Notes under the pieces: model-generated
Told to the model about the DNA's origin: nothing
Seen by the model: the letters and a program-made list of their open reading frames with translations, nothing else
Databases searched by the model: none
Position numbers and translations under genes: made by a program
Assembly: GCA_027622665.1 (NCBI GenBank)
Contig: JAQBYT010000046.1
Span: 1-30,714 of the forward strand
Source: Verrucomicrobiota bacterium
GTDB lineage: Bacteria; Verrucomicrobiota; Verrucomicrobiia; Opitutales; Seribacteraceae
Direction: 5' to 3'
DNA: 30,714 bases
Shown: in pieces, positions 17,796 to 30,714 of the stretch
Numbering within the stretch: the stretch's first letter is position 1
How the letters are laid out: each line of letters opens with the position of its first letter

Positions 17796-19714
17796 TGAAA
17801 ACTATCTCGTTCCTTATCGCGACCCTAAGTCTTGTTTCGCCCGTTGCGGCAGACCAGTTCCTCTTCCTGGCTGCGGCAAAGGATTCTGATCTGGTCTCCT
17901 ATCGCATCGATCCTCAATCGGGTGCCTTGAGCGAACACATGCGCCTGCAACTTCCTGGTGTTGGCGGACCCATGAGCCTCTCGGCCGATGGCGAGATGCT
18001 GTACGTGGAGTCTCACCTCAAGGCCGAGGGGGGAGAGCAGGCCAAACCGCACATCATCAGCCTGAGGATCAAGCGCGGAAAGTTCGAGCAAATCCACATC
18101 GCACCGGTCAGCATGCGCTCTCCGTCGATTCACCTCGATGCCAGTGGCAAGAATCTGCTTGGAGCTCATTACGGCGAGGGCAAGGTGAGCGTCTGGAAAA
18201 TCGATGCCCAGCGTCGTTGCACCGGCGAACAGTCCGACGAACATACCACCTCAACGCATGCACACTTTGTTATTACCGATCCAAGCAATCGCTTTGCCTA
18301 TGTGCCGCACACCAAAGCGAATGCGGTGTTCCAGTTTGCTCTTGATTCCGAGAAGGGAAAACTCACTCCGCTCGATCCGCCATTCGCCCCCGGACCGGAC
18401 GTGGACCACGAATACCATGGCCCGCGCCACTATGCCCACCATCCCATTCTCCATATGGGTTTTACCGCGAATGAACGAGGAGGCGGCATCAGTTCGTGGA
18501 ACTTTGATGATAAAAACGGCCGACTTTCTTTGTTGCAAACGCTCTCAAGCCTGCCCGCGGACTGGGAGGGGAAAAGTTTTGCCGCGGACATTCATATCAC
18601 GCCCAATGGCCGTTTCGCTTACGTATCGAATCGGGATGGGCGAAAGATGGAAAAGGGAGAGCCTCATGGCGACACCTTAGCCGGTTTTGAGATCGATCTG
18701 AAAACAGGAGGAATGAAGTCGGTGGGCCATTTCCCAACGGGGCGTTTCCCGAGATCGTTCTGCATCGATGCAACGGGAAATTTCATCTTCGTTGCATGTG
18801 AATTGGATCACAAGTTAGAGGTTTGTCGCGTTAATCAGGAAACGGGGGCGCTGAAACGGATAGGGAGCTATGAAACGGGTAAAACTCCCATTTGGGTGAC
18901 TTGTAGCGGTCTAAAGCTTCCGCTTGGAGATGACGGTCCGGGGATTTCGAGGATCATACCAGTTGAAGCAACTCAACAGCTCAAGGCGATTCGTGACGAG
19001 ATCGGGGTAATTAAAAATCTCGATACCCTGTACGAAGATCGTACACACAAAAACGGACTACCTTATCATGTCTATGTCCCTAAACACCTTAAGGCTGGGG
19101 TGAAATATCCGATGGTGACGTTTCTTCACGGATATACGGATCTGACGATTGATACGCACAAAGGTTTTCCTAAAGGAGTGTGGTCACTGCCGAAGATTCA
19201 GAAAGCCCATCCGCACATTCTTTTCATCCCCCGGAACAGGAACAATCAAGACCGCTGGACGAGTGACGAATATCGAGGCATGACCATCAAGGCCCTTGAT
19301 GACTTGATTGCTGAACTGAACGACAATCCGAAGACGCCCGACATCAATGTGAATCAACTCTACCTGACGGGTTTTTCGCGCGGAGGGCAGGGCACTTGGA
19401 ATTTCATCCGCACCTTCCCTAACAAGTTTGCGGCCGCTGCACCGTTGTCAGGATTTTTTCATGGCCCACAGAACGCCGGAGAAGCAAAATCGATCAAACA
19501 CCTTCCCATTTGGATCTTCAATGGTGACGGTGACAAAGGAGTTGAAGGTTCACGCGTAAGTTTCAAAGCTTTGACCGAGGCAGGTGCCGTAGACGTAAGG
19601 TATCATGAATACAAGGCCCAAGGTCATGTCATTGACGACTTTGCCTACTTCACCAAGGGTTTCATGGATTGGTTGTTTACCCAAAAGCAAAAAACAGCTT
19701 CAGCGGGGCTGTAG
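17792..19714 (+). CDS. Fusion of a 6-phosphogluconolactonase-family beta-propeller and an alpha/beta-hydrolase (esterase-like)
   Basis: HAHFV, GPRHYAHHP, AADIHITPNGRFAYVSNR and FPRSF, then YPMVTFLHG, LYLTGFSRGGQG, PIWIFNGDGD and GH. ATGA overlap with the upstream stop codon. Confidence 0.9.
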   Translation: MMKTISFLIATLSLVSPVAADQFLFLAAAKDSDLVSYRIDPQSGALSEHMRLQLPGVGGPMSLSADGEMLYVESHLKAEGGEQAKPHIISLRIKRGKFEQIHIAPVSMRSPSIHLDASGKNLLGAHYGEGKVSVWKIDAQRRCTGEQSDEHTTSTHAHFVITDPSNRFAYVPHTKANAVFQFALDSEKGKLTPLDPPFAPGPDVDHEYHGPRHYAHHPILHMGFTANERGGGISSWNFDDKNGRLSLLQTLSSLPADWEGKSFAADIHITPNGRFAYVSNRDGRKMEKGEPHGDTLAGFEIDLKTGGMKSVGHFPTGRFPRSFCIDATGNFIFVACELDHKLEVCRVNQETGALKRIGSYETGKTPIWVTCSGLKLPLGDDGPGISRIIPVEATQQLKAIRDEIGVIKNLDTLYEDRTHKNGLPYHVYVPKHLKAGVKYPMVTFLHGYTDLTIDTHKGFPKGVWSLPKIQKAHPHILFIPRNRNNQDRWTSDEYRGMTIKALDDLIAELNDNPKTPDINVNQLYLTGFSRGGQGTWNFIRTFPNKFAAAAPLSGFFHGPQNAGEAKSIKHLPIWIFNGDGDKGVEGSRVSFKALTEAGAVDVRYHEYKAQGHVIDDFAYFTKGFMDWLFTQKQKTASAGL

Positions 19715-19824
19715 ACTTCACAACAGGCGCATTCACCTTTGATTGGAATATTTGTCCAAGATTTCCTGTTTCCGACCTTTCTCTTCATGAATGTATCGGC
19801 CAACGAATTATGCAGTTCGAATCC

Positions 19825-22800
19825 ATGAAACTCTCTCGTCTTATCCTCGCCCACCTTCTCGTTTCAGTCTCAGGATTTGCCGAAGTTCAACCAAGCGCCA
19901 TCGATGTCGATAGCTCCGCCGCGTTTCGCGAGACCAGATCGGAGCCCGCAACTGCTGAAACGCTCAAAGGTCTTATCGCTCCCGCAGCTAGCGAAATCGA
20001 GCGCGCAAGCTGGACGATCGAAGCGTCCGAATCGGAACGACGCAGCCGAGGCACGTATCACTTTCGAATCGCGTTCAAGGAGTCCCAGTCGCTCGGCGGC
20101 CTGACGGCGGTTTTACAGAATCCGGGTACGGTCACGATCCGCGCCCTGAAGCCCAATGCTCCGTTTCCGGGCGACCCTGCAGCAGATCACTGGATCACGT
20201 TGCCGGCTTGGAATGCATCGGAAACGATCGATTGCGTGCTGTCGCCCGGCTTCAAAACACGGTCGATTCTGATTACGGATTCGCGCCCGAGCGGGCAGAG
20301 CAACCTCCGTGGCCTTACGTTTCGCTTAGAGCGAAGATACGTCGTTACGGGCTCCGCGATCGCACAGGGCGAGCAGACGAAACATGGCCAGGATCCAGCT
20401 AATTTGATCGCTGGGGATTTGTGGCGGAGCGCGGGGACGGAGCCGAATTCGGACAAGGTGAATCGGTCCCCTGTCACAACGGTGGCCCCTTCGTGGGCCA
20501 GTCTCGTCTGGGACGAACCTCAATCCGTTTCGAGCATCCGGATCCGTTCGAACGCGAAGAAATTCGAGCTACGTGAGTTCATTGGTGAACCCGACGTAAA
20601 CCCTGCGCTGGCACCAGCTGCTGCTTGGCGCGTTGTTGACGTTGAACCTGTGATTCGACCGATCTGGCGAAGCCGCCACCTGCTCGAGCAAGTCTACACT
20701 TTCGACACACCTAAGCCGATCAGCGCGTTGCAATTTCACGTGACCAAGGTTACCTCCGCGAGCCGCTACAATTCGATTCTCGAAATCCACGACTTCACGG
20801 TCTTTCGGAATCTCGCTGCGAACGAGCCGGTGCCGGTGCCGGTGAGGCGCACCGAGCCTCCGCCCCCTCTCCAATTTACTTGGAAAACTGAAGTCGATTC
20901 AGAGCCTGCCATGGTTATAAACACTCCCGAAGGTCGCCGGGTTCGCAATCTCTTCGCTCAGGTGCCCCAGAAAGCAGGCGATCACCTTGCCGCTTGGGAT
21001 CTGAAGGACGACAAGGGTTTGCCCGTTGCTCCGGGCACCTATCATTGGGAAGCGGTTTATGGACCGGAACCTCGCCTGATTTATCAGATGACGCCTTATC
21101 CGAACAGCTACGCGCATTCTCCGCATAGTTCGCCGTGGCAGGGCGAATCAGACGATGGATGGATGTCGAATCACGGTCAACTTACTGCCGTTTGCGCTTT
21201 AGGAGACCACGTCTTTATGGGCCAGAACGGTTCCGAAGGCGGACACGCTCTTATTGAAGTGACGAATTCAGGTAGCAAATTGTGGGGTACGCATGAGACA
21301 ACGGATACACTTTTTACCGACGGAAATACATTGTTTAGTCACAATATATGGCAAGGGAACATTAGCCGTCTGAATCACGAAACAAAGAAGCAGGAATTGA
21401 TGTTTTCGCTCGCCCAGGACCCTGCTCGACAAGGCAACATTGTTGGTCTGGCGGCAAAAGACGATAGAATTTACATCGCGTATCACGCTCCTGTTCCTTT
21501 TCTTGAGGATGCGACTGGTGAGACAAAAATTTCGATCGGGGATTGTTTGCCAAAGTTGCGCAGCGAAATCACGGGGAGTTCGAACTATGGGATCTCGGGT
21601 CGACCGCAGTGGGATTTCATGAGCCTTTTCCGGCTTACGGAATTCGTTAACGGCTCTGATTCAAACGGTGGCTTGTTGCGCATTCCTAGCACGAAAGGAA
21701 TCGGTCGGGAGCAACATATTCTTTTGGCGTTCAAAGAGCCGACGCCTCTTGGCAGCCTTATCTTTCCAGGCTTTAGCGCACCTAAAGGAGTCAAGATGCT
21801 CGCTTATGTCCTTAAACCAAAAGGATCATTTCCCCCGAAGGTGGACAAGCTAGGTGATTGGACGCCGGTTCCCTTGGGAGTGGTCGGGGACTGGAATTGC
21901 GTGGCACTTCCCAAGCAAACGCTAACTCGAGCATTGCGTATTACCTTCAGCCAACCGGGGGGGGAGTTGGATTTGGTTTTGGATGGAGATACGCTGGGCG
22001 AGCCGAGCTTGAATATCGATTTGCCCTTGGGGGGCGCTAAGAAAAAAGGGGCCGGTGGTCTGATCGCGAGCAAAAACGAGTGGCGAGCGGAGCTCGACGG
22101 CATGCGAATTCTCCGGCGGCGTTTTGAGAAAGTCAGCCAAAAGGCAAGGATTCAAGTTAACTCGGGCACCTACGATGAGAAGGCAGGGGAGTGGGATGCG
22201 CTGCGGGATGAAATCCTCAGCGAAAGCAATCCTGCGATCTTTATGATGGAGTGGGACGAACTACAAAGTATTCGCGGGCTTTCGCTTAAGGAGTTGGACG
22301 GCGAGGAAGCGAGAATCGATGTTTTTACAGGTCCCGTCGGCGCTGAAATTGATTTATCTTCTTCTCGAAACTGGGAAGAAGTCGCCGTTTACAACCAGAA
22401 ACTTCGTTATCTCTATGCTCCGGATCGTCGCAACAACTCTCGAGCGATCTACCTCGATGGGGTCGTCGATTTCGGTCGTTCCTATGAAACGCGAGCGGTG
22501 CGGTTGCGGATCGTATCGCAGTGGAAGGAACAGGATGGGCGACAGTGGGGCATCCGTCTGGATCGCGGCGGAAGCGAAATCGATTGGAAGCGTTGCAGGC
22601 TCTACGGAATTGCCCCTCTACGCTATCTCGGCGGAGAGCCCGAGAAAAGCGCGATGGGGGTACGCCGCATCGAAGTGCGAGATGGTGCAACGGGTCAGTT
22701 GATCGAAGAAAAGCCTTCACGTGTATCAGGTGAGCTTTGTTTTGACCCCCATGGCCAACTGCACGGCATCGTCGGCAAGTCTGTCGTGCGGATTGAGGAC

Positions 22801-25038
22801 GGCGCCGTGGTTGCCACCGGCTTGGAGAACCCGCGTTGCCTACAGATTTCAAAAGGTGGCGAGTTTTACGTTTACGACCATGGAGTGGAGAATCGTCAAG
22901 TGAAGGTCTTCGATTCGTCGGGAACTCTGCTTCGCTCTATTGGGAAACCGGGCCGCCGTTTAGCAGGGCCTTATGATCCGGATTTCCTCGAAGACATCAA
23001 CGAAATGTCGCTCGATTCCGAGGGTAGTCTCTGGCTCGTTTACGAACACGACAATCCGCGTCGTATCATGAAGTTCAGTGCCGACGGGAAATTCCTTGCC
23101 GACTTTTTTGGAAACACCAACTACGGGGGCGGCGGAACCATCGACCCATGGGATCCTACGCGTATGTATTTCCGGGATATGGTTTTTAAGCTGGATCATG
23201 AAACGGGCGAAAGCCGACTGGCGGCTTTGACCTCGGCCGACCATCTGGAGTCCAGCGATCAATCTAGTCGTCATATTCGAAGGCAGACCGAGGTGTTTGT
23301 TCTGAATGATCGGCGTTACGTGGTGACTGCTCCCATTTCTCACACCCCTGAACAAAACGTGGCCTTGATCAACCTTTTCGACGAGAAGAAGATGACCGTT
23401 CGAATGTGTGCAGCAGTGGGGCATGCGTCCAGATTTCCTCCTCTGCAAAATGAAAAGTTCATCGCGAAAACGGGTGGTGCCCCATTAGGGGGCTATCGCT
23501 TTCTCTGGAACGATCTGAATCAGGATGGCGAAGTCGAGGTTGATGAAGTCGTCTTGACCAAATTGGAATCCAGAGACTTCTTCCTCGGACGATTTGACGA
23601 CGGTCTCGGCGTCATGTCCGGAAACCTTCGATTCGAACCTGAGCGTTTTCTCGATGACGGCACCCCGATCTTGAAAGAGAACAAACTGTCTTTCTCCGCA
23701 GATTACCGACTCTCCAACGGCAACTATTTTCGCTACGCCAAGGGCGCGAACGAGGTGGTTACACCTGCTGGTGAACCCATCTGGAGCTATCCTGCCCACC
23801 ACCGGATGAGTGGGCTTTACGTGCCGCCTTACCAACCCGGCAAGGTCGATTTACAATACGGGATCAAAGGGCACGGACGCACTAGCCCTGAGGGGCTGGG
23901 GGACTTTTTTGTAATCTTCAGCAATAGTGGGCAGGCCAACGTGTGGACCGCCGATGGTTTTCTAGCCACTCGGATTTCCTATCACAAAAATAATCCCCGT
24001 CGAAATAATTTCTCCTCCTTCGATCACAAACGCGGCACCGATGTGTCGCGAGTGACTTTCGGGCAAGAGCATTTTTCCAATTACTTCACGCAAAGCGTCC
24101 AAGATGGCCGGCACTTTGTCGTTGGGGGACATCTGACGATGAGCCTTTTCGAGGTCAAGGGTCTGAATGATTTCAAACGTATCCGGGGCACGATCGAAGT
24201 GACTCCCGAGCTAGTTGAAAAAACACGCATTTGGGATGCCCACCGGATTGCCCGCGAACAATTTTCCAAGCCTCACCTCGCGCAGTCTCTGCCCGGTACA
24301 CCTGAGCCAGACGGACAAATTGACTCGAATGAATATCAAGCCGCTCCTCTTGAAATCGAGGGAATCGCTGACTTGCGCATTTCTCATGATGATAACGCCC
24401 TCTATCTCGGATGGCGCGTGCATGCTCTCGCAGGTCCCTTCAAGAATACGGGGACCGAGTTTCAGCGCACCTTCAAAACCGGTGGCGGCGTTGATGTCAA
24501 GTTGGGCCTCGATCCAACTGCCAATCCCAATCGCCGCCAACCCGTGATCGGTGACGCGCGTCTTATCCTAACCAAGTTTAATGGCAAACCAACCGCGATT
24601 CTATACCGTCCCGTTGCTCCCGGAAAACCGGGGCCATGGAGCACTGAAACTGAGGCTGGCGGGATGACTTCATTTGATGATGTAAAGATCATCCGAGATA
24701 TCAAACTAGTTCACAAAGGCGAGGGAAGTGGCTATGTGCTTGAAGCCACGATCCCTTGGCAATCCTTGGGGCTCAATAAAGCTCCAAATGGACAACGCCT
24801 GCGATTCGATTGGTCTGTTTTATCAACAGCGACTGGCCACAAAACCATAGCTCGCCGCTCTTGGGCCAATAAACTTGCCGTCGGCACTACCGATGAACCT
24901 ACGGAGGCTCGGCTAACACCCGGTTTGTGGGGCTGGTTGGAAATCCAGTCACAAGACGATAGCACTCCGGACTTGTACAACGTTTTTGACAAAAAGAAGG
25001 AATCCGGCGATCTGGATATCCTAATTGATGGATTGTAG
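19825..25038 (+). CDS. Large exported multidomain protein (discoidin-like repeats, FlgD Ig-like, NHL/propeller, EF-hand-like loop, CBM9-like C-terminus)
   Basis: 1737 aa from the ATG at 19825. GRRVRNL and WDLKDDKGLPVAPGTY (FlgD-like); VKVFDSSGTLLRSIGKPG (NHL); WNDLNQDGEVE; HDDNALYLGWRV and GYVLEATIPWQSLG (CBM9/DOMON-like). Confidence 0.8.
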   Translation: MKLSRLILAHLLVSVSGFAEVQPSAIDVDSSAAFRETRSEPATAETLKGLIAPAASEIERASWTIEASESERRSRGTYHFRIAFKESQSLGGLTAVLQNPGTVTIRALKPNAPFPGDPAADHWITLPAWNASETIDCVLSPGFKTRSILITDSRPSGQSNLRGLTFRLERRYVVTGSAIAQGEQTKHGQDPANLIAGDLWRSAGTEPNSDKVNRSPVTTVAPSWASLVWDEPQSVSSIRIRSNAKKFELREFIGEPDVNPALAPAAAWRVVDVEPVIRPIWRSRHLLEQVYTFDTPKPISALQFHVTKVTSASRYNSILEIHDFTVFRNLAANEPVPVPVRRTEPPPPLQFTWKTEVDSEPAMVINTPEGRRVRNLFAQVPQKAGDHLAAWDLKDDKGLPVAPGTYHWEAVYGPEPRLIYQMTPYPNSYAHSPHSSPWQGESDDGWMSNHGQLTAVCALGDHVFMGQNGSEGGHALIEVTNSGSKLWGTHETTDTLFTDGNTLFSHNIWQGNISRLNHETKKQELMFSLAQDPARQGNIVGLAAKDDRIYIAYHAPVPFLEDATGETKISIGDCLPKLRSEITGSSNYGISGRPQWDFMSLFRLTEFVNGSDSNGGLLRIPSTKGIGREQHILLAFKEPTPLGSLIFPGFSAPKGVKMLAYVLKPKGSFPPKVDKLGDWTPVPLGVVGDWNCVALPKQTLTRALRITFSQPGGELDLVLDGDTLGEPSLNIDLPLGGAKKKGAGGLIASKNEWRAELDGMRILRRRFEKVSQKARIQVNSGTYDEKAGEWDALRDEILSESNPAIFMMEWDELQSIRGLSLKELDGEEARIDVFTGPVGAEIDLSSSRNWEEVAVYNQKLRYLYAPDRRNNSRAIYLDGVVDFGRSYETRAVRLRIVSQWKEQDGRQWGIRLDRGGSEIDWKRCRLYGIAPLRYLGGEPEKSAMGVRRIEVRDGATGQLIEEKPSRVSGELCFDPHGQLHGIVGKSVVRIEDGAVVATGLENPRCLQISKGGEFYVYDHGVENRQVKVFDSSGTLLRSIGKPGRRLAGPYDPDFLEDINEMSLDSEGSLWLVYEHDNPRRIMKFSADGKFLADFFGNTNYGGGGTIDPWDPTRMYFRDMVFKLDHETGESRLAALTSADHLESSDQSSRHIRRQTEVFVLNDRRYVVTAPISHTPEQNVALINLFDEKKMTVRMCAAVGHASRFPPLQNEKFIAKTGGAPLGGYRFLWNDLNQDGEVEVDEVVLTKLESRDFFLGRFDDGLGVMSGNLRFEPERFLDDGTPILKENKLSFSADYRLSNGNYFRYAKGANEVVTPAGEPIWSYPAHHRMSGLYVPPYQPGKVDLQYGIKGHGRTSPEGLGDFFVIFSNSGQANVWTADGFLATRISYHKNNPRRNNFSSFDHKRGTDVSRVTFGQEHFSNYFTQSVQDGRHFVVGGHLTMSLFEVKGLNDFKRIRGTIEVTPELVEKTRIWDAHRIAREQFSKPHLAQSLPGTPEPDGQIDSNEYQAAPLEIEGIADLRISHDDNALYLGWRVHALAGPFKNTGTEFQRTFKTGGGVDVKLGLDPTANPNRRQPVIGDARLILTKFNGKPTAILYRPVAPGKPGPWSTETEAGGMTSFDDVKIIRDIKLVHKGEGSGYVLEATIPWQSLGLNKAPNGQRLRFDWSVLSTATGHKTIARRSWANKLAVGTTDEPTEARLTPGLWGWLEIQSQDDSTPDLYNVFDKKKESGDLDILIDGL

Positions 25039-25800: not shown

Positions 25801-28800
25801 GTGATCTCATTTGCCGAAAAAAGTTCCCGATCCCTCGCTCGCCTCCTTGCGGTTGGCCTGCTTCTGCTCGGATTGGTCTCCACTGCACATGCGGACCTCA
25901 CCGCCGGCCTAGTCGCCTACTATCCCTTCGACGGCAACGCCTCCGATATGTCGGGGAATGGGAATGACGGGACGGTCAATGGAGCGACGCTAGGGGCGGA
26001 CCGTTTTGGAGAGGCAGGGAAGTCGTACGACTTCGATGGTAACGATTATCTCTCTTTTGGGGACAAGCAGGACTTTGATATGGGAACGGGCGATTTCACC
26101 ATATCCGCTTGGATCAAGACCTCATCTTCCTCACGAGGGGAAATAACCAACAAAGGATCCAATGTTTCCAACACGGGCTATAATACTTTCGTTATGCCCT
26201 CCGGAGTTCTCGCCATCGAGATTCATGATAACTATGCCGCTTTTTCCACCGCAACGGTTAACAATGGTCAATGGCGCCATGCCGTGGGGATGCGCGACGG
26301 GGACAACTTGAATCTGTTTGTCGATGGTGTCGCCGATGGCTCAAGAACCGGAGTCAATAACTATGAAGTCAGTGCATCGAATCAATTTTACGTCGGTTCG
26401 AGGGAGGCAACCTCTCCTTTTTTCAACGGCTCCATCGACGAGTTCCGCGTCTACAACCGGGCCCTTTCCGCAAACGAGGTGACGGCCTTGTACCAGTTGG
26501 AAAGCACTCCACCGCCGAACCAAGCCCCCGCCTTTGCCGAAAGCAACGCCACTTTCACCACCGCCGAGAACAATGCCTCTGCCAGCTTCGTTGTAAGTGC
26601 GACGGATACCGACGCGAACACGACCTTGGTCTACGCAAAGTTCGGGCCCGACGCGGGCAAGTTCACCCTCAACATAGCCACAGGAGCACTCACCTTCACC
26701 AACACGCCCGATTACGAGGCCAACGCCTCCGCCGCCGGCAATAATGCTTTCTCCCTAACCATCAAAGTAACCGACGGCGAAGCCAACGCCACCCAAGCGG
26801 TCACCGTCAACGTGACGAATTTGTTGGAGACCGTTCCACCTTTGATCTCTATTCCTGCCGGAGTTTACGAGAGCAACTCCACCTCCGTGGCCTCGGGACT
26901 CGAGGTGGCTCTTTCGGCTTTTTCAATCGAGGCTCACGAGATGCCTTTGTTCCTCTGGAATGAAGTCTACCTATGGGGTACGCCGAACGGCTACGCTTTC
27001 TCCAATGCCGGCTTGGCTTTCAGCCCCGATCACCCGGTCCATTCGGTCAACTGGTATGACGTTGTGAAATGGGCCAATGCCCGTTCCGAGAAGGAAGGGC
27101 TGACTCCGTGTTACTACACCGACGTCAATCGTACCCGAGTCTACCGTTCAGGCCAAGTCGACGTCACCAACATGATGGTCAAGTGGAGCGCCGATGGCTA
27201 CCGCCTTCCCACTGAGGCTGAATGGGAAGTGAGCGCGCGAGGCGGCTTGGTCGCCAATAACTACGCTTGGGGCAATTCGCCCTCCACCAGCAACGCCAAT
27301 TACCTCGCTGCCGGGCTCGGCCAAACGGTTCTCTCGGGAAGTTACAATCCCAATGGCTACGGTTTGCGCGACCTGGGCGGCAACCTCAGGGAATGGGTCT
27401 GGGATTTGAATAATTCGCATTTTGGTCACGATTTCGTTTATTCAAATACCACTGCAAATTCCTTGTCAGCCATTTTTGATGAAGTGAACTCCTCGGCCAT
27501 CTATGTGCCGGAAACAAACGGCTTTCAGCCTTTCTTTGAAAGTACTTATTCTCTCTCCGAAGTGGTGAAAAGCAGCATGAGTTTCTCTTTGGCCAAGACC
27601 TTGAATTTCGACCCGGCTGCTCAAATCGGCAGTGTAACAAATCAAATAGCAAATAAACGTGCCAGTGGTGGTTATCCCGCTCAATGTAAAATGAAATTTT
27701 ATTATATTGATGGCACTTCGGCTGAAAGTACGACTCATGGCCATGAATCGTCTCCGTGGTCTTGGGGAACAAAGTCATACGCCAACCCCAATACTGATAA
27801 GCTGGTATCCAAGATAGAGGTGTTTCTTAAGAAGAATTACAACCAATCGGCTTGGGGTACTTTTGAGAGAAATACAAGAGTCTACGGGCTTCACTATGAA
27901 GATAATACAGGACACCTGACCTTTGACTTGCCTCAATATGAAGAAAGCAATGCCACGCATTTTTTTGTGAAAGTAGATGCTGTCAGTGAGAATGGTGATG
28001 ATATTTGGTTTGAGTTGATCGATGGCTCGAGCGTGGCAACTTTTTCAAATGATGATTTTGGCCAGAGGCTTCCTTTGCCTGTAAATGTTTTAATTCCAAA
28101 GCAGCTTCGGATTTATCTCAAAAGGTCTGCCCAAAATAATTCTGTGGGAGGCTTGTCCGTAAGTTCAGTTTCTTGGAATGTTGATAATCCCAAAGCTTTT
28201 GCTTCAACTTCTTCTAAACGTGTGGTTAGAGACAACCACTTTGGCGAAAATCTTAAAACCCTCAATCATCGAAGTTTCTTCAATCCAAATGAGGCTAACT
28301 CTACTATTGGGTTCCGCTTGGTCAGAAGGCTCGCGCCCAACCAACCTCCCGTTTTTGCCGGCGGCTCCACCTTCACCACGGCCGAAAACAATGCATCGGC
28401 CAGTTTCGTCGTAACCGCGACCGATCCCGATGCGAACACAACCTTGGTCTACTCCAAGTCCGGGCCCGACGCGGGCAAGTTCACCCTCAACGTAGCCACG
28501 GGAACCCTCACATTCACCAATACGCCCGACTACGAGGCCAACGCCTCCGTCGCCGGCAACAATGCTTTCTCCCTAACCATCACCGTAACCGACGGCGAAG
28601 CCAACGCCACGCAGAGCGTAACCGTCAACGTGACGAACATGGTGGAAGACTTCGACCAAGACGGCATCGATGATCACTTCGACACCGATGACGATGGCGA
28701 CGGATTCAGCGACACCGCCGAGATTGCCTATGGATCGGACCCGAGGAACGCGAACTCGGTGGCCAACCAAGCGCCCACGGCGCTCGATCTCAACAATACA

Positions 28801-30714
28801 ACCATCGCAGAGAATCAACCTGCGGGAACGATCGTGGGCAAGTTAACCGGAGTCGATCCGGATGGAAATGCGACCTTGGCTTTTTCCCGAGCCAATGGCC
28901 AAGGATCCAAGCACAACAACCAGTTTTTCGTCGGCCCCCACAATAACTTGAAAGCCAAGAACCCGATTGATTTCGAAGCCAACGCCACCTTGACGGTCCG
29001 CCTCAAAGTGAGAGACGAGCACAACGCAAGCTACGAAAAGATCTTCCAGATTACTGTTCTTAACATAGTCGAAGACCTAGACTCCGACGGCATCGAGGAT
29101 CATGCCGACCCCGACGACGACAACGACGGCTTCAGCGACGCGGAGGAGCTGGCTGCTGGTACGAATCCCGACGACAACGCGAGCATCCCCAACCGGGCCC
29201 CGACCGACATCCTGCTGCCGACCAACGTCATCCTCGAGAACCGGCCCGTCGGCACCTTGGTGGGCACCTTGTCCGCAGTCGATCCGGACTTCGGGGCATC
29301 TCACGGATATTCCTTTGCAGGCATGAACGCTAGCATCGTTACCCACAATCCTTTGGTTGCTTATGGTATCGATACCGTGGTCGAGGTTAACGGAACTCTT
29401 TGGAAAGCACTCGTGGACTTGTCGCCACAGGGCATACACAACCCTGCGACGAATTATGCGCTTGGAAATCGTGTTACAAATGGGCAAGGCCGGTACTACG
29501 AAGCCAAGATGGATTTTCAGAATGCTCCTGTCTGGGCTTCTCACTCATGGTACGAAGCGAGTACGATAGTTTCATACCAAGGAAACTTCTATCTTTCCAA
29601 ATCCTATCACAAGACCAAGACGCCAACCACCCGTCCCGATTATTGGGATTTGGTCGACTTGACGCTTGTGGGAACCGCTTGGGAAAACGTAACTGCAAAC
29701 GCCATGCCCGGCGGTTCATTTTGGTCATCTTTCGATCCTCCTTACAAGAATCACCTCTTCACCCTTGACGCCAATGGCACCTTAAAGACCGCCGCTATCC
29801 TCGACCACGAGACCAACGCCTCACGAACCATTCGCGTCCAGGCCACCGACGAACACAACGCAAGCATCGAACAAACCTTCGTCATTACCGTTCTGGATGA
29901 TCCTGCCGACAACAACACAAGCCAAGTAGTAGACGACAACGGAACGATCCCTGATCAAAACGGAACCGTCGTCGATTCCAATGGCACCTACGTCGATGAC
30001 AATGCAACAGTACCCGACGGGAACGGAACTTTCGTCGATACGAATGCAACTTTGCCCGACAACAACGCAACCCTGCTGGATACCAACGGGACTTTCGTGG
30101 ATGACAATGCAACAGTACCCGACGGGAACGGCACCCATGTAGACACGAACGGAACTTTACCTGATTCAAATGCGACTGTCCCTCATCCGACACCCTCCGA
30201 TCAGAACGAAACGATTGTGGAACCGCATGAACCTCACCCCGATGCGAACGGAACCGTTCTGGGTCAGAACGGGACTTTCGTGGATCATAACCAAACGCAC
30301 ATTGATACGAACGGCACGATTCCTAACACGAACGCAACTTTACCTGATTCAAATGCGACTGTTCCGGATCCGAGTACGACACCCCCCGACCAGAACGAAA
30401 CGATTGTGGAACCGCATGAACCTCACCCCGATGGGAACGGAACCGTTCCGGATCAGAACGGGACTTTCGTGGATGACAATGCAACAGTACCCGACGGGAA
30501 CGGCACCCATGTAGACACGAACGGAACTTTACCTGATTCAAATGCGACTGTCCCTGATCCGACACCCTCCGATCAGAACGAAACGATGGTGGAACCGCAT
30601 GAACCTCACCCCGATGGGAACGGAACCGTTCCGGACCAAAATGGGACTTTCGTGGATCATAACCAAACGTACGTGGATACGAACGGCACGATTCCAGACA
30701 CGAACGCAACTTTT
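25801..30714 (+). CDS. Giant surface or adhesin-like protein (LamG, cadherin-like x4, FGE/SUMF1-like, TSP3-like, CBM5/12-like, sequon repeats), 3'-incomplete
   Basis: Manually translated frame with no stop from GTG 25801 to the window end (1638 codons); upstream in-frame TAA at 25756. Signal peptide ending in AHA; GLVAYYPFDGN and FNGSIDEFRVYNRALS; GYRLPTEAEWE, GNLREWVWD and GFRLVR; PDYE and DFE cadherin motifs; DFDQDGIDD. Confidence 0.93.
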   Translation, partial: MISFAEKSSRSLARLLAVGLLLLGLVSTAHADLTAGLVAYYPFDGNASDMSGNGNDGTVNGATLGADRFGEAGKSYDFDGNDYLSFGDKQDFDMGTGDFTISAWIKTSSSSRGEITNKGSNVSNTGYNTFVMPSGVLAIEIHDNYAAFSTATVNNGQWRHAVGMRDGDNLNLFVDGVADGSRTGVNNYEVSASNQFYVGSREATSPFFNGSIDEFRVYNRALSANEVTALYQLESTPPPNQAPAFAESNATFTTAENNASASFVVSATDTDANTTLVYAKFGPDAGKFTLNIATGALTFTNTPDYEANASAAGNNAFSLTIKVTDGEANATQAVTVNVTNLLETVPPLISIPAGVYESNSTSVASGLEVALSAFSIEAHEMPLFLWNEVYLWGTPNGYAFSNAGLAFSPDHPVHSVNWYDVVKWANARSEKEGLTPCYYTDVNRTRVYRSGQVDVTNMMVKWSADGYRLPTEAEWEVSARGGLVANNYAWGNSPSTSNANYLAAGLGQTVLSGSYNPNGYGLRDLGGNLREWVWDLNNSHFGHDFVYSNTTANSLSAIFDEVNSSAIYVPETNGFQPFFESTYSLSEVVKSSMSFSLAKTLNFDPAAQIGSVTNQIANKRASGGYPAQCKMKFYYIDGTSAESTTHGHESSPWSWGTKSYANPNTDKLVSKIEVFLKKNYNQSAWGTFERNTRVYGLHYEDNTGHLTFDLPQYEESNATHFFVKVDAVSENGDDIWFELIDGSSVATFSNDDFGQRLPLPVNVLIPKQLRIYLKRSAQNNSVGGLSVSSVSWNVDNPKAFASTSSKRVVRDNHFGENLKTLNHRSFFNPNEANSTIGFRLVRRLAPNQPPVFAGGSTFTTAENNASASFVVTATDPDANTTLVYSKSGPDAGKFTLNVATGTLTFTNTPDYEANASVAGNNAFSLTITVTDGEANATQSVTVNVTNMVEDFDQDGIDDHFDTDDDGDGFSDTAEIAYGSDPRNANSVANQAPTALDLNNTTIAENQPAGTIVGKLTGVDPDGNATLAFSRANGQGSKHNNQFFVGPHNNLKAKNPIDFEANATLTVRLKVRDEHNASYEKIFQITVLNIVEDLDSDGIEDHADPDDDNDGFSDAEELAAGTNPDDNASIPNRAPTDILLPTNVILENRPVGTLVGTLSAVDPDFGASHGYSFAGMNASIVTHNPLVAYGIDTVVEVNGTLWKALVDLSPQGIHNPATNYALGNRVTNGQGRYYEAKMDFQNAPVWASHSWYEASTIVSYQGNFYLSKSYHKTKTPTTRPDYWDLVDLTLVGTAWENVTANAMPGGSFWSSFDPPYKNHLFTLDANGTLKTAAILDHETNASRTIRVQATDEHNASIEQTFVITVLDDPADNNTSQVVDDNGTIPDQNGTVVDSNGTYVDDNATVPDGNGTFVDTNATLPDNNATLLDTNGTFVDDNATVPDGNGTHVDTNGTLPDSNATVPHPTPSDQNETIVEPHEPHPDANGTVLGQNGTFVDHNQTHIDTNGTIPNTNATLPDSNATVPDPSTTPPDQNETIVEPHEPHPDGNGTVPDQNGTFVDDNATVPDGNGTHVDTNGTLPDSNATVPDPTPSDQNETMVEPHEPHPDGNGTVPDQNGTFVDHNQTYVDTNGTIPDTNATF
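26518..26826 (+). repeat. Cadherin-like coding repeat, copy 1
   Basis: Highly similar in DNA to 28339..28647, for example the shared CGGGCCCGACGCGGGCAAGTTCACCCTCAAC. Confidence 0.9.
28339..28647 (+). repeat. Cadherin-like coding repeat, copy 2
   Basis: Direct repeat of 26518..26826. Confidence 0.9.
29908..30714 (+). repeat. Coding 21-nt (7-aa) tandem repeat D-x-N-x-T-x-x with a 372-nt higher-order repeat
   Basis: DDNGTIP DQNGTVV DSNGTYV DDNATVP and so on; 30085..30341 recurs at 30457..30713. Confidence 0.95.

Follow-up and report, generated by a model that had tools for sequence, protein, structure and literature searches.

The stretch of DNA analysed here, referred to as the window, is a contig of 30,714 nucleotides (JAQBYT010000046.1) from a Verrucomicrobiota genome assembly (GCA_027622665.1; contig C42 of source genome G000, 4.5 Mb and 93.5% complete). 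Named homologues and relatives place the host lineage among the marine Opitutia/Opitutales. The last part of the window encodes a giant exported protein (25801..30714, + strand) that is cut by the contig end after 1638 amino acids, and no continuation of it was found elsewhere in the assembly. We focused on a motif that is frequent in this protein, the extended sequon or site D/E-x-N-x-S/T, which is a sequon (N-x-S/T, where x is not proline) with aspartate or glutamate at position −2 (the −2 acid). In the giant protein, 56 of the 69 sequons are extended. The motif agrees with the acceptor rule of the bacterial oligosaccharyltransferase PglB (D/E-X-N-X-S/T, X not proline; PMC12229607, in excerpt), and our analysis concerns both the motif and a PglB-like enzyme encoded on another contig of the same genome.

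Extended Sequons Fill a Giant Exported Protein

The domains of the giant protein, all on the + strand, were delimited for the counts per domain by Pfam matches (LamG, three cadherin stretches, the FGE-sulfatase-like domain and two TSP3 repeats) and by eye. A predicted signal-peptide-like N-terminus (25801..25896; basic, hydrophobic and with AxA, judged by eye and by hydropathy) precedes a LamG/ConA-like domain (PF13385, 25897..26508), in which one of three sequons is extended (Asn46, codon at 25936). The first cadherin domain (26509..26835) has five extended sites (Asn249, 258, 273, 308 and 329) and one plain sequon (Asn337). An FGE-sulfatase-like domain (PF03781) follows, with all four sequons extended: three in its N-terminal part (26836..27435; Asn359, 443 and 537) and one in its C-terminal part (28225..28338; Asn833). 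Between the two parts lies an AT-rich insert (27436..28224, GC 0.42) without a Pfam match, where two of five sequons are extended (Asn563 and 717). These two sites are kept in 3/3 and 2/3 homologues, and the second is also kept across an indel in a paralogue on contig C12. Cadherin domain 2 (28339..28650) is a copy of domain 1 at 84% identity and has four extended sites among five sequons, as does cadherin domain 3 (28777..29079). A TSP3-like calcium-binding acidic repeat (PF18884, 28651..28776) contains no sequon, though it is high in aspartate, and the only sequon of a second such repeat (29080..29193) is extended (Asn1126). Cadherin domain 4 (29194..29907, boundaries by eye) is split by an aromatic-rich insert (29335-29748), with three of four sequons extended in the cadherin part and one of two in the insert. 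The protein then runs into a Pro/Thr/Asp-rich repeat stalk (29908..30714) of 3.1 copies of a 183-bp unit, in which 31 of 34 sequons are extended.

To count the motif outside the stalk, we used the translation of 25801-29907 (1369 amino acids), which ends before the repeat. The initial annotation had estimated that about 25 of about 35 sequons in this region carry a −2 acid, and the exact count is 25/35 (16 glutamates and 9 aspartates). Shuffling gave 2.0–2.3 expected extended sites with a maximum of 8–11 (5000 shuffles per scheme, over the whole protein or in windows of 50, 20 or 10 amino acids). At about ten times the shuffled expectation before the stalk begins, the signal supports the annotation's argument that it is not a by-product of the repeat. 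The total number of sequons was raised as well (35, compared with about 21 in shuffles). Acidic residues at the other offsets from −6 to +6 occurred in only 0–9 of the 35 sequons, and serine or threonine stood at +2 in 25 of 30 D/E-x-N triplets compared with 10 of 97 other asparagines. As the extended sites are encoded by many synonymous codons, the signal is at the protein level.

Two further claims of the annotation were compared with the counts. Duplicated cadherins were said to inflate the count, which drops to 21/30 when the duplicated cadherin 2 is removed; the excess persists (expected 2.1). Sites do occur across unrelated domains, as LamG, FGE and the two inserts alone hold 8/14 extended sequons (expected 1.2; maximum 7 in 20000 shuffles), but the AT-rich insert by itself (2/5, p = 0.052) is borderline and not significant, and is thus weaker than had been implied.

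The other proteins of the window were said to show no enrichment, and this was borne out by the remaining 14 open reading frames (ORFs) on the contig, where 4 of 32 sequons are extended. Directly before the site-rich gene lies a gene for an exported-looking protein of 1789 amino acids (19669-25038, + strand) with a weak FlgD-Ig match, in which 0/7 sequons are extended; site loading is therefore selective. Near the other contig end, a frame at 23-751 (− strand) combines a deoxynucleoside-kinase domain with an integrase-core (rve_3) fragment and is probably an in-frame fusion with an insertion-sequence remnant.

Extended Sequons Are Enriched in Exported Proteins across the Genome

In the source genome, for which ORFs were called with a crude caller of our own, 1672 of 6997 sequons (24%) had a −2 acid, compared with 10–12% at six other offsets. 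At a false discovery rate of 5%, 50 of 3368 ORFs were enriched, whereas three control offsets yielded none. The excess was about 980 extended sites. As the cytoplasm-like class includes fragments of giant proteins that are cut at contig ends, classes were compared only for ORFs shorter than 1000 amino acids. Here, extended sequons made up 24% in ORFs with a hydrophobic N-terminus (371/1523), 23% in ORFs with several transmembrane segments (73/319), 16% in an ambiguous class (189/1184) and 13.7% in cytoplasm-like ORFs (251/1831), where the frequency of D/E is 13.3%. The control motifs N-x-nonS/T, Q-x-S/T and N-P-S/T were flat across the ORF classes. The sites are enriched in exported proteins only. 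Proline was found at −1 and +1 in 35 and 40 of 1720 extended motifs, compared with 325 and 437 of 5854 in the comparison set, about as many as expected from the share of chance motifs alone. This depletion at both x positions of the putative acceptor sites fits the PglB rule.

Among 20 enriched ORFs that were picked for annotation, those with Pfam names were all envelope proteins: SecDF, YidC, SecG (in the tail), ExbB/MotA (at the N-terminus), LptA, NfeD, an FKBP-type peptidyl-prolyl isomerase, YdbH, YhdP, a VWA-TPR protein, an M16 peptidase, an ankyrin protein, a DUF2807 protein and a propeller. The number of sites per protein reaches the tens, with 56 in the giant-protein fragment of the window and 80 in another protein. 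Two giant ORFs of 13428 (C2:14216-54499) and 8761 amino acids (C34:8693-34975) contain 71 and 72 extended sequons, respectively. A count of one degenerate codon pattern at the DNA level in 41 genomes (12–70 per Mb in the family and 3–17 per Mb elsewhere) was rejected as evidence and not used; its ranges overlap, it is sensitive to GC content, and its control did not match the protein motif.

The Genome Encodes a Single Divergent PglB

A single STT3 match was found in the genome, a frame of 1086 amino acids on a contig other than the window (C43:2660-5920, − strand). It matches the STT3 N-terminal membrane domain (PF02516) and the STT3/PglB core domain (PF21436) above the cut-off. Its best solved relatives are the structures of Campylobacter lari PglB (E = 5e-43 as a single sequence, 1e-71 as a profile), whereas yeast STT3 matches at only E = 9e-4, and some of its homologues are already labelled as oligosaccharyltransferases in databases. 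In the profile alignment, D123, R218, D225, D227, E451 and R529 correspond to C. lari D56, R147, D154, D156, E319 and R375, while R463, W630-W631-D632 and I746 correspond to R331, the WWD motif and I572. The alignment of the E319 loop is a weak, separate segment (5.8 bits), but it is in register. In the MxxI motif, the methionine is replaced by isoleucine and the isoleucine I746 is kept. The catalytic and peptide-side equivalents are invariant in every homologue that covers them (26–28 of 28 aligned), including R463 in 28/28 and I746 in 27/28, and WWD is present in 120/120.

In C. lari PglB, R331 forms a pair with the −2 acid and Y468 binds the N-acetyl moiety on the donor (PMC7226087, in excerpt). 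The donor-pocket equivalent of Tyr468 is serine in all 120 homologues and tyrosine in none, and the DGGKH stretch is replaced. Judged by these residues, the enzyme is PglB-like on its peptide side and may differ on its sugar side. PglBs of the family are 1030–1200 amino acids long, and the enzyme studied here is about 370 residues longer than that of C. lari. A Cys-rich CxCxxC insert (residues ~470-477) directly follows the R331 equivalent in 97/120 homologues. The family enzymes also have a long C-terminal extension (residues ~780-1086), with a LysM match in one homologue.

The pglB gene is located outside any pgl operon, between two upstream genes for membrane/coiled-coil proteins and a downstream gene for a surface protein. 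The latter (C43:3-2435, − strand) encodes an FG-GAP propeller protein with 43 of 45 sequons extended, and at its end a unit of 8 residues, with one extended sequon per unit, is repeated about 40 times. It stays beside pglB in genus g1, while other genera have a different large protein there. Metatranscriptome contigs from four runs of four studies cover parts of pglB; as they make up small shares and DNA carry-over is possible, they are at most a weak hint of expression.

As a candidate for the donor pathway, a large polysaccharide cluster (C13:16000-55703) contains a PglK-like ABC transporter, a WecA-like protein, two phosphoglycosyltransferases, a dehydratase, a LegC-type aminotransferase, WecB and GT4 glycosyltransferases. 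This cluster may serve lipopolysaccharide (LPS) or capsule synthesis.

Gene and Motif Share the Same Family Distribution

PglB was found in 22 of 24 genomes of the family, which represent five genera, whereas 0 of 16 other families of the order had it. The two family genomes without a hit probably reflect gaps in the assemblies. In one genome (G016, 91% complete), the contig ends inside the gene upstream of pglB, while SecDF and YidC still carry sites, and a loss of pglB was therefore rejected. In the other, which is only 51% complete, the upstream gene is absent too. In a further genome (G024), pglB (C8, L017) has three in-frame stops, but both neighbours are broken as well, which suggests an assembly or sequencing error rather than loss. 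The upstream gene is present in the three other families that were checked, and no pglB was seen behind it within 0.7–1.5 kb. This fits one insertion in the ancestor of the family.

The motif follows the gene in proteins that all these families share. In YidC, 44 of 92 sequons are extended in 13 family genomes, each with at least one site, compared with 0/48 in the 16 other families. For SecDF, the numbers are 31/69 and 6/65, with a universal membrane motif dropped in 28 of 31 rows; two variants of that motif escaped the filter and account for two of the six outgroup sites. In the shared YidC and SecDF columns, the x residues vary while D/E, N and S/T are kept. Proteins with a Trp-rich module show the same contrast at equal D/E content: 452/827 sequons are extended in the source genome, compared with 6/90 in 30 proteins from four families in which no PglB was found.

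The Trp-rich module spans about 105 amino acids and is mostly C-terminal. It occurs in 33–34 proteins of the source genome (e.g., L191-L196), in 24 copies in genome G030 and in 2–3 copies in three other families, and close homologues of the giant protein have it at their C-terminal end. No convincing Pfam family was found for it (one of six members matched WW, at E = 5e-4). Its role may be to sort or anchor surface proteins of Opitutales. In the source genome, YidC (C55:242969-245062) ends in a DnaJ domain and its periplasmic part contains a CxxC, and YidC measures about 690 amino acids in the family compared with mostly 570–660 in other families.

A PF02516 scan of the phylum matched 18 of 200 other genomes. 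In two of these, WWD was found in the longest frame of the locus, and both proteins are distant from the family enzyme. They come from one family (f53; L135 and L136, in genomes G115 and G193) and are STT3-like proteins of about 710 amino acids. They also have an arginine 12–13 residues from a T-I-x-E-like motif, which was not confirmed, and they may represent a separate oligosaccharyltransferase lineage in the phylum.

Sites Probably Arose by Small Steps in Different Folds

The 119 homologues of the giant protein fall into two groups, 24 with 53–81% of their sequons extended (one of them on three sequons only) and 95 with at most 37%. In homologous domains from taxa where no PglB was found, the motif is scarce (LamG 1/24, cadherin 1/24 and FGE 1/10 sequons); the cadherin figure comes from 20 domains of loci outside the family and of named proteobacterial plasmids.

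For cadherins, 2518 domains of 150 unlabelled proteins were compared, with two site-rich proteins set aside. At sites 258, 273 and 308, the −2 acid is kept in 89%, 91% and 98% of homologous domains (1855–2323 domains), whereas asparagine is found in 14%, 8% and 0%. The motif is complete in 5.3%, 2.5% and 0.2% of them (876–2412 domains per site). Among family relatives, the motif is complete at these sites in 12/22, 6/17 and 11/25 domains. In solved cadherins, the counterparts of the three acids belong to the xEN, DxD and D(R/Y)E motifs, which bind calcium. As read from the alignments, the −2 acid in cadherins is thus an ancestral calcium-binding residue and the asparagine is new. The acid alone is therefore no evidence for glycosylation, while the completed motif is. 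In LamG, the alignments point the other way round, with an old asparagine and a new serine: 41 of 52 domains have the whole site in site-rich homologues, compared with 2 of 59 in the others, a comparison that is partly circular as homologues were grouped by site density. The same grouping, and the same circularity, applies to asparagine conservation, which was 217/306 at extended sites, 26/90 at plain sequons and 382/981 at other asparagines. New sites were probably made by minimal steps, through an asparagine placed two residues after an existing acid (xE, DxD and DYE in cadherins, D-x-x-x-T in FGE) or, in LamG, a serine placed after an existing D-G-N.

The annotation had proposed to map the sites onto predicted surface loops. 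The mapping covers cadherin 1 (6 of the 35 sequons) and is based on secondary structure, not on solvent accessibility. In an AlphaFold model with a cadherin fold (predicted local distance difference test, pLDDT, 92), loops contain four of the extended sites and the fifth is at the start of a strand, while the plain sequon Asn337 lies in the middle of a strand. A model of residues 33-846 built from a 13-row alignment had a pLDDT of 47.7 and was discarded.

Probable N-Glycosylation and Its Alternatives

The extended sequons are very probably the acceptor sequons of a general PglB-type N-glycosylation system in one marine Opitutales family. N-glycosylation was already implied by the initial annotation, and both the excess over shuffles and the scarcity of the motif in homologous domains from taxa without a detected PglB support it. 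The analysis shows that the motif is in excess, that this is restricted to exported proteins, that proline is depleted, that an intact pglB with the key residues is present and that gene and motif co-occur across families. From these we infer the occupancy of the sites, the glycan, its transfer before folding and its purpose.

Several points weigh against this reading. The whole case is drawn from sequences. The NCBIfam model for PglB (NF050801) gives the enzyme only 197 bits, with a cut-off of 1300. R331 alone does not impose the −2 rule, as Desulfovibrio gigas PglB keeps it and is nevertheless relaxed (PMC4894442, in excerpt); the −2 preference is therefore argued from the proteome and not from this residue. 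Many exported proteins have no sites, as in the rest of the window (4/32), and site density is low in genus g3, with 1–2 sites in YidC. A PglK-like flippase does not track PglB (8/24 family genomes and 3/16 others, with 25 candidates scored per genome), and we rejected it as a partner marker. Finally, the family is one lineage, and the correlation of gene and motif rests on a single gain. As the genomes are kin, the contrast is one lineage against sixteen rather than many independent events.

Alternatively, D/E-x-N-x-S/T could be an element that binds calcium or caps turns in cadherin, TSP3 and beta-rich domains and that was inflated by domain duplication. This would agree with the strong conservation of the acid at the three cadherin sites and its alignment with solved calcium motifs, with 2 of the 150 unlabelled cadherin proteins, which reach 42–55% extended sequons through a repeated structural motif, and with the universal SecDF motif D-A-N-x-T in 30 of 31 genomes. 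However, asparagine is rare (0–14%) at those same cadherin positions, the motif recurs with varying x residues in folds of unrelated types as well as in the disordered tails of SecG, ExbB and NfeD, YidC of 16 other families has none, and the TSP3 repeats, which are the most acidic part of the giant protein, hold a single site. A structural role would account for some of the acids but leave the motif unexplained; these comparisons already largely refute it, and we consider it extremely unlikely.

It is also very unlikely that the sites are real but modified by another enzyme or chemistry, such as a cytoplasmic HMW1C-type N-glycosyltransferase or a protease or isoaspartate-forming motif, with PglB serving lipid or LPS glycosylation. 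Such a role might suit an enzyme with a divergent donor pocket and about 370 additional residues that is unlinked to pgl genes, but the motif fits the PglB rule at all five positions, including proline depletion at −1 and +1 (PMC12229607, in excerpt), and the peptide-binding residues are invariant. A search of the genome for HMW1C_N gave no match, but as there was none in any control genome either, this does not show absence. Another highly improbable scenario is that only the ancestor of the family had a working system, of which the present sites are decaying leftovers. The lower site density in genus g3 and the stops in the G024 pglB point in this direction, although the broken neighbours of the latter suggest an assembly error. 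Decay is at odds with 120 homologues whose frames are open and whose active sites are invariant, with recently expanded repeats that are saturated with sites (31/34 in the stalk and 43/45 in the protein beside pglB), and with conservation at the level of the motif while x varies.

Under PglB-type N-glycosylation, an oligosaccharide would be built on undecaprenyl pyrophosphate and then flipped, and PglB would transfer the sugar to asparagine at the periplasmic side, with WWD binding Thr/Ser at +2 and Arg463 binding the −2 acid. As several −2 acids are calcium ligands in the folded cadherin, transfer probably occurs during or just after translocation, before calcium locks the fold. On the cell surface, the giant protein would then act as an adhesin that is densely glycosylated and has a glycan brush for a stalk, and the likely purpose of the glycans would be stability, shielding from proteases or phages, and hydration of surface proteins. 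A more far-reaching version is possible but doubtful: one divergent PglB was acquired and the surface proteome was rewired into a eukaryote-like N-glycocalyx of about 1000 sites, which would include adhesins with tens of glycans and mucin-like stalks of N-sites, a different lipid-linked donor (perhaps lacking a 2-acetamido reducing sugar, given the loss of Tyr468), and transfer during translocation on sequons whose −2 acid later becomes a calcium ligand. If this holds, glycoengineering would gain a new class of oligosaccharyltransferase, and the family would be a source of marine glycoprotein that has gone unrecognised.

Comparison with Known Systems

Taken together, the feature is real and is best read, from the sequences compared here, as a variant of PglB-type N-glycosylation in a phylum new for it. 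In the excerpted sources, PglB-type N-glycosylation has been described for Campylobacterota, Desulfobacterota and Deferribacter, and PglBs have been characterised in Campylobacter, Helicobacter, Desulfovibrio, Nitratiruptor, Sulfurovum and Deferribacter (PMC6025236, in excerpt). Our literature search, with most subscription journals and supplements outside it, found no report of PglB or N-glycosylation in Verrucomicrobiota. The main text of PMC12229607 does not mention Verrucomicrob*, and PMC4973528 (in excerpt) names both PglB and Verrucomicrobia in an unrelated mention, though its trees might include such sequences. With a working system, PglB-type N-glycosylation would reach a new phylum as well as bacteria that live free in seawater, and its site density would be very high. 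It would also offer a clean natural case of a proteome in which sequons evolved once one enzyme had been gained, which can be followed at single residues of LamG, FGE and cadherin, and the altered donor pocket makes the enzyme a candidate for glycoconjugate engineering.

The closest known system is the PglB of Campylobacter jejuni and C. lari (PDB 3RCE, 5OGL and 6GXC; PF02516 and PF21436; NF050801). Both systems share an extended sequon in which x is not proline, a single-subunit oligosaccharyltransferase with the same key residues, and periplasmic and membrane proteins as (here predicted) targets. Unlike in Campylobacter, the Verrucomicrobiota enzyme measures 1030–1200 amino acids, has a Cys-rich insert, a C-terminal extension, serine for Y468 and a replaced DGGKH stretch, and is encoded by a stand-alone gene instead of a pgl operon (pglA, C, D, E, F, H, I, J and K). 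In C. jejuni, proteins have one to a few glycosylation sites, whereas the Verrucomicrobiota proteins can carry tens of putative sites. The Campylobacter glycan on asparagine is a heptasaccharide that starts with diNAcBac. PglBs outside Campylobacter are also known from Desulfovibrio, Helicobacter pullorum and the deep-sea vent genera Nitratiruptor, Sulfurovum and Deferribacter, none of which belongs to the Planctomycetes-Verrucomicrobia-Chlamydiae (PVC) group. The pgl genes of H. pullorum are dispersed over five loci (PMC6025236, in excerpt). Several Desulfovibrio PglBs are relaxed at −2 (PMC4894442 and PMC12229607, in excerpt), unlike the strong preference for a −2 acid in the Verrucomicrobiota proteome. 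Dense sequons on large surface proteins, including cadherin folds, recall the S-layers and cadherins modified by archaeal AglB and eukaryotic STT3. However, AglB and STT3 use N-x-S/T without a −2 acid, and the Verrucomicrobiota enzyme is far closer to bacterial PglB.

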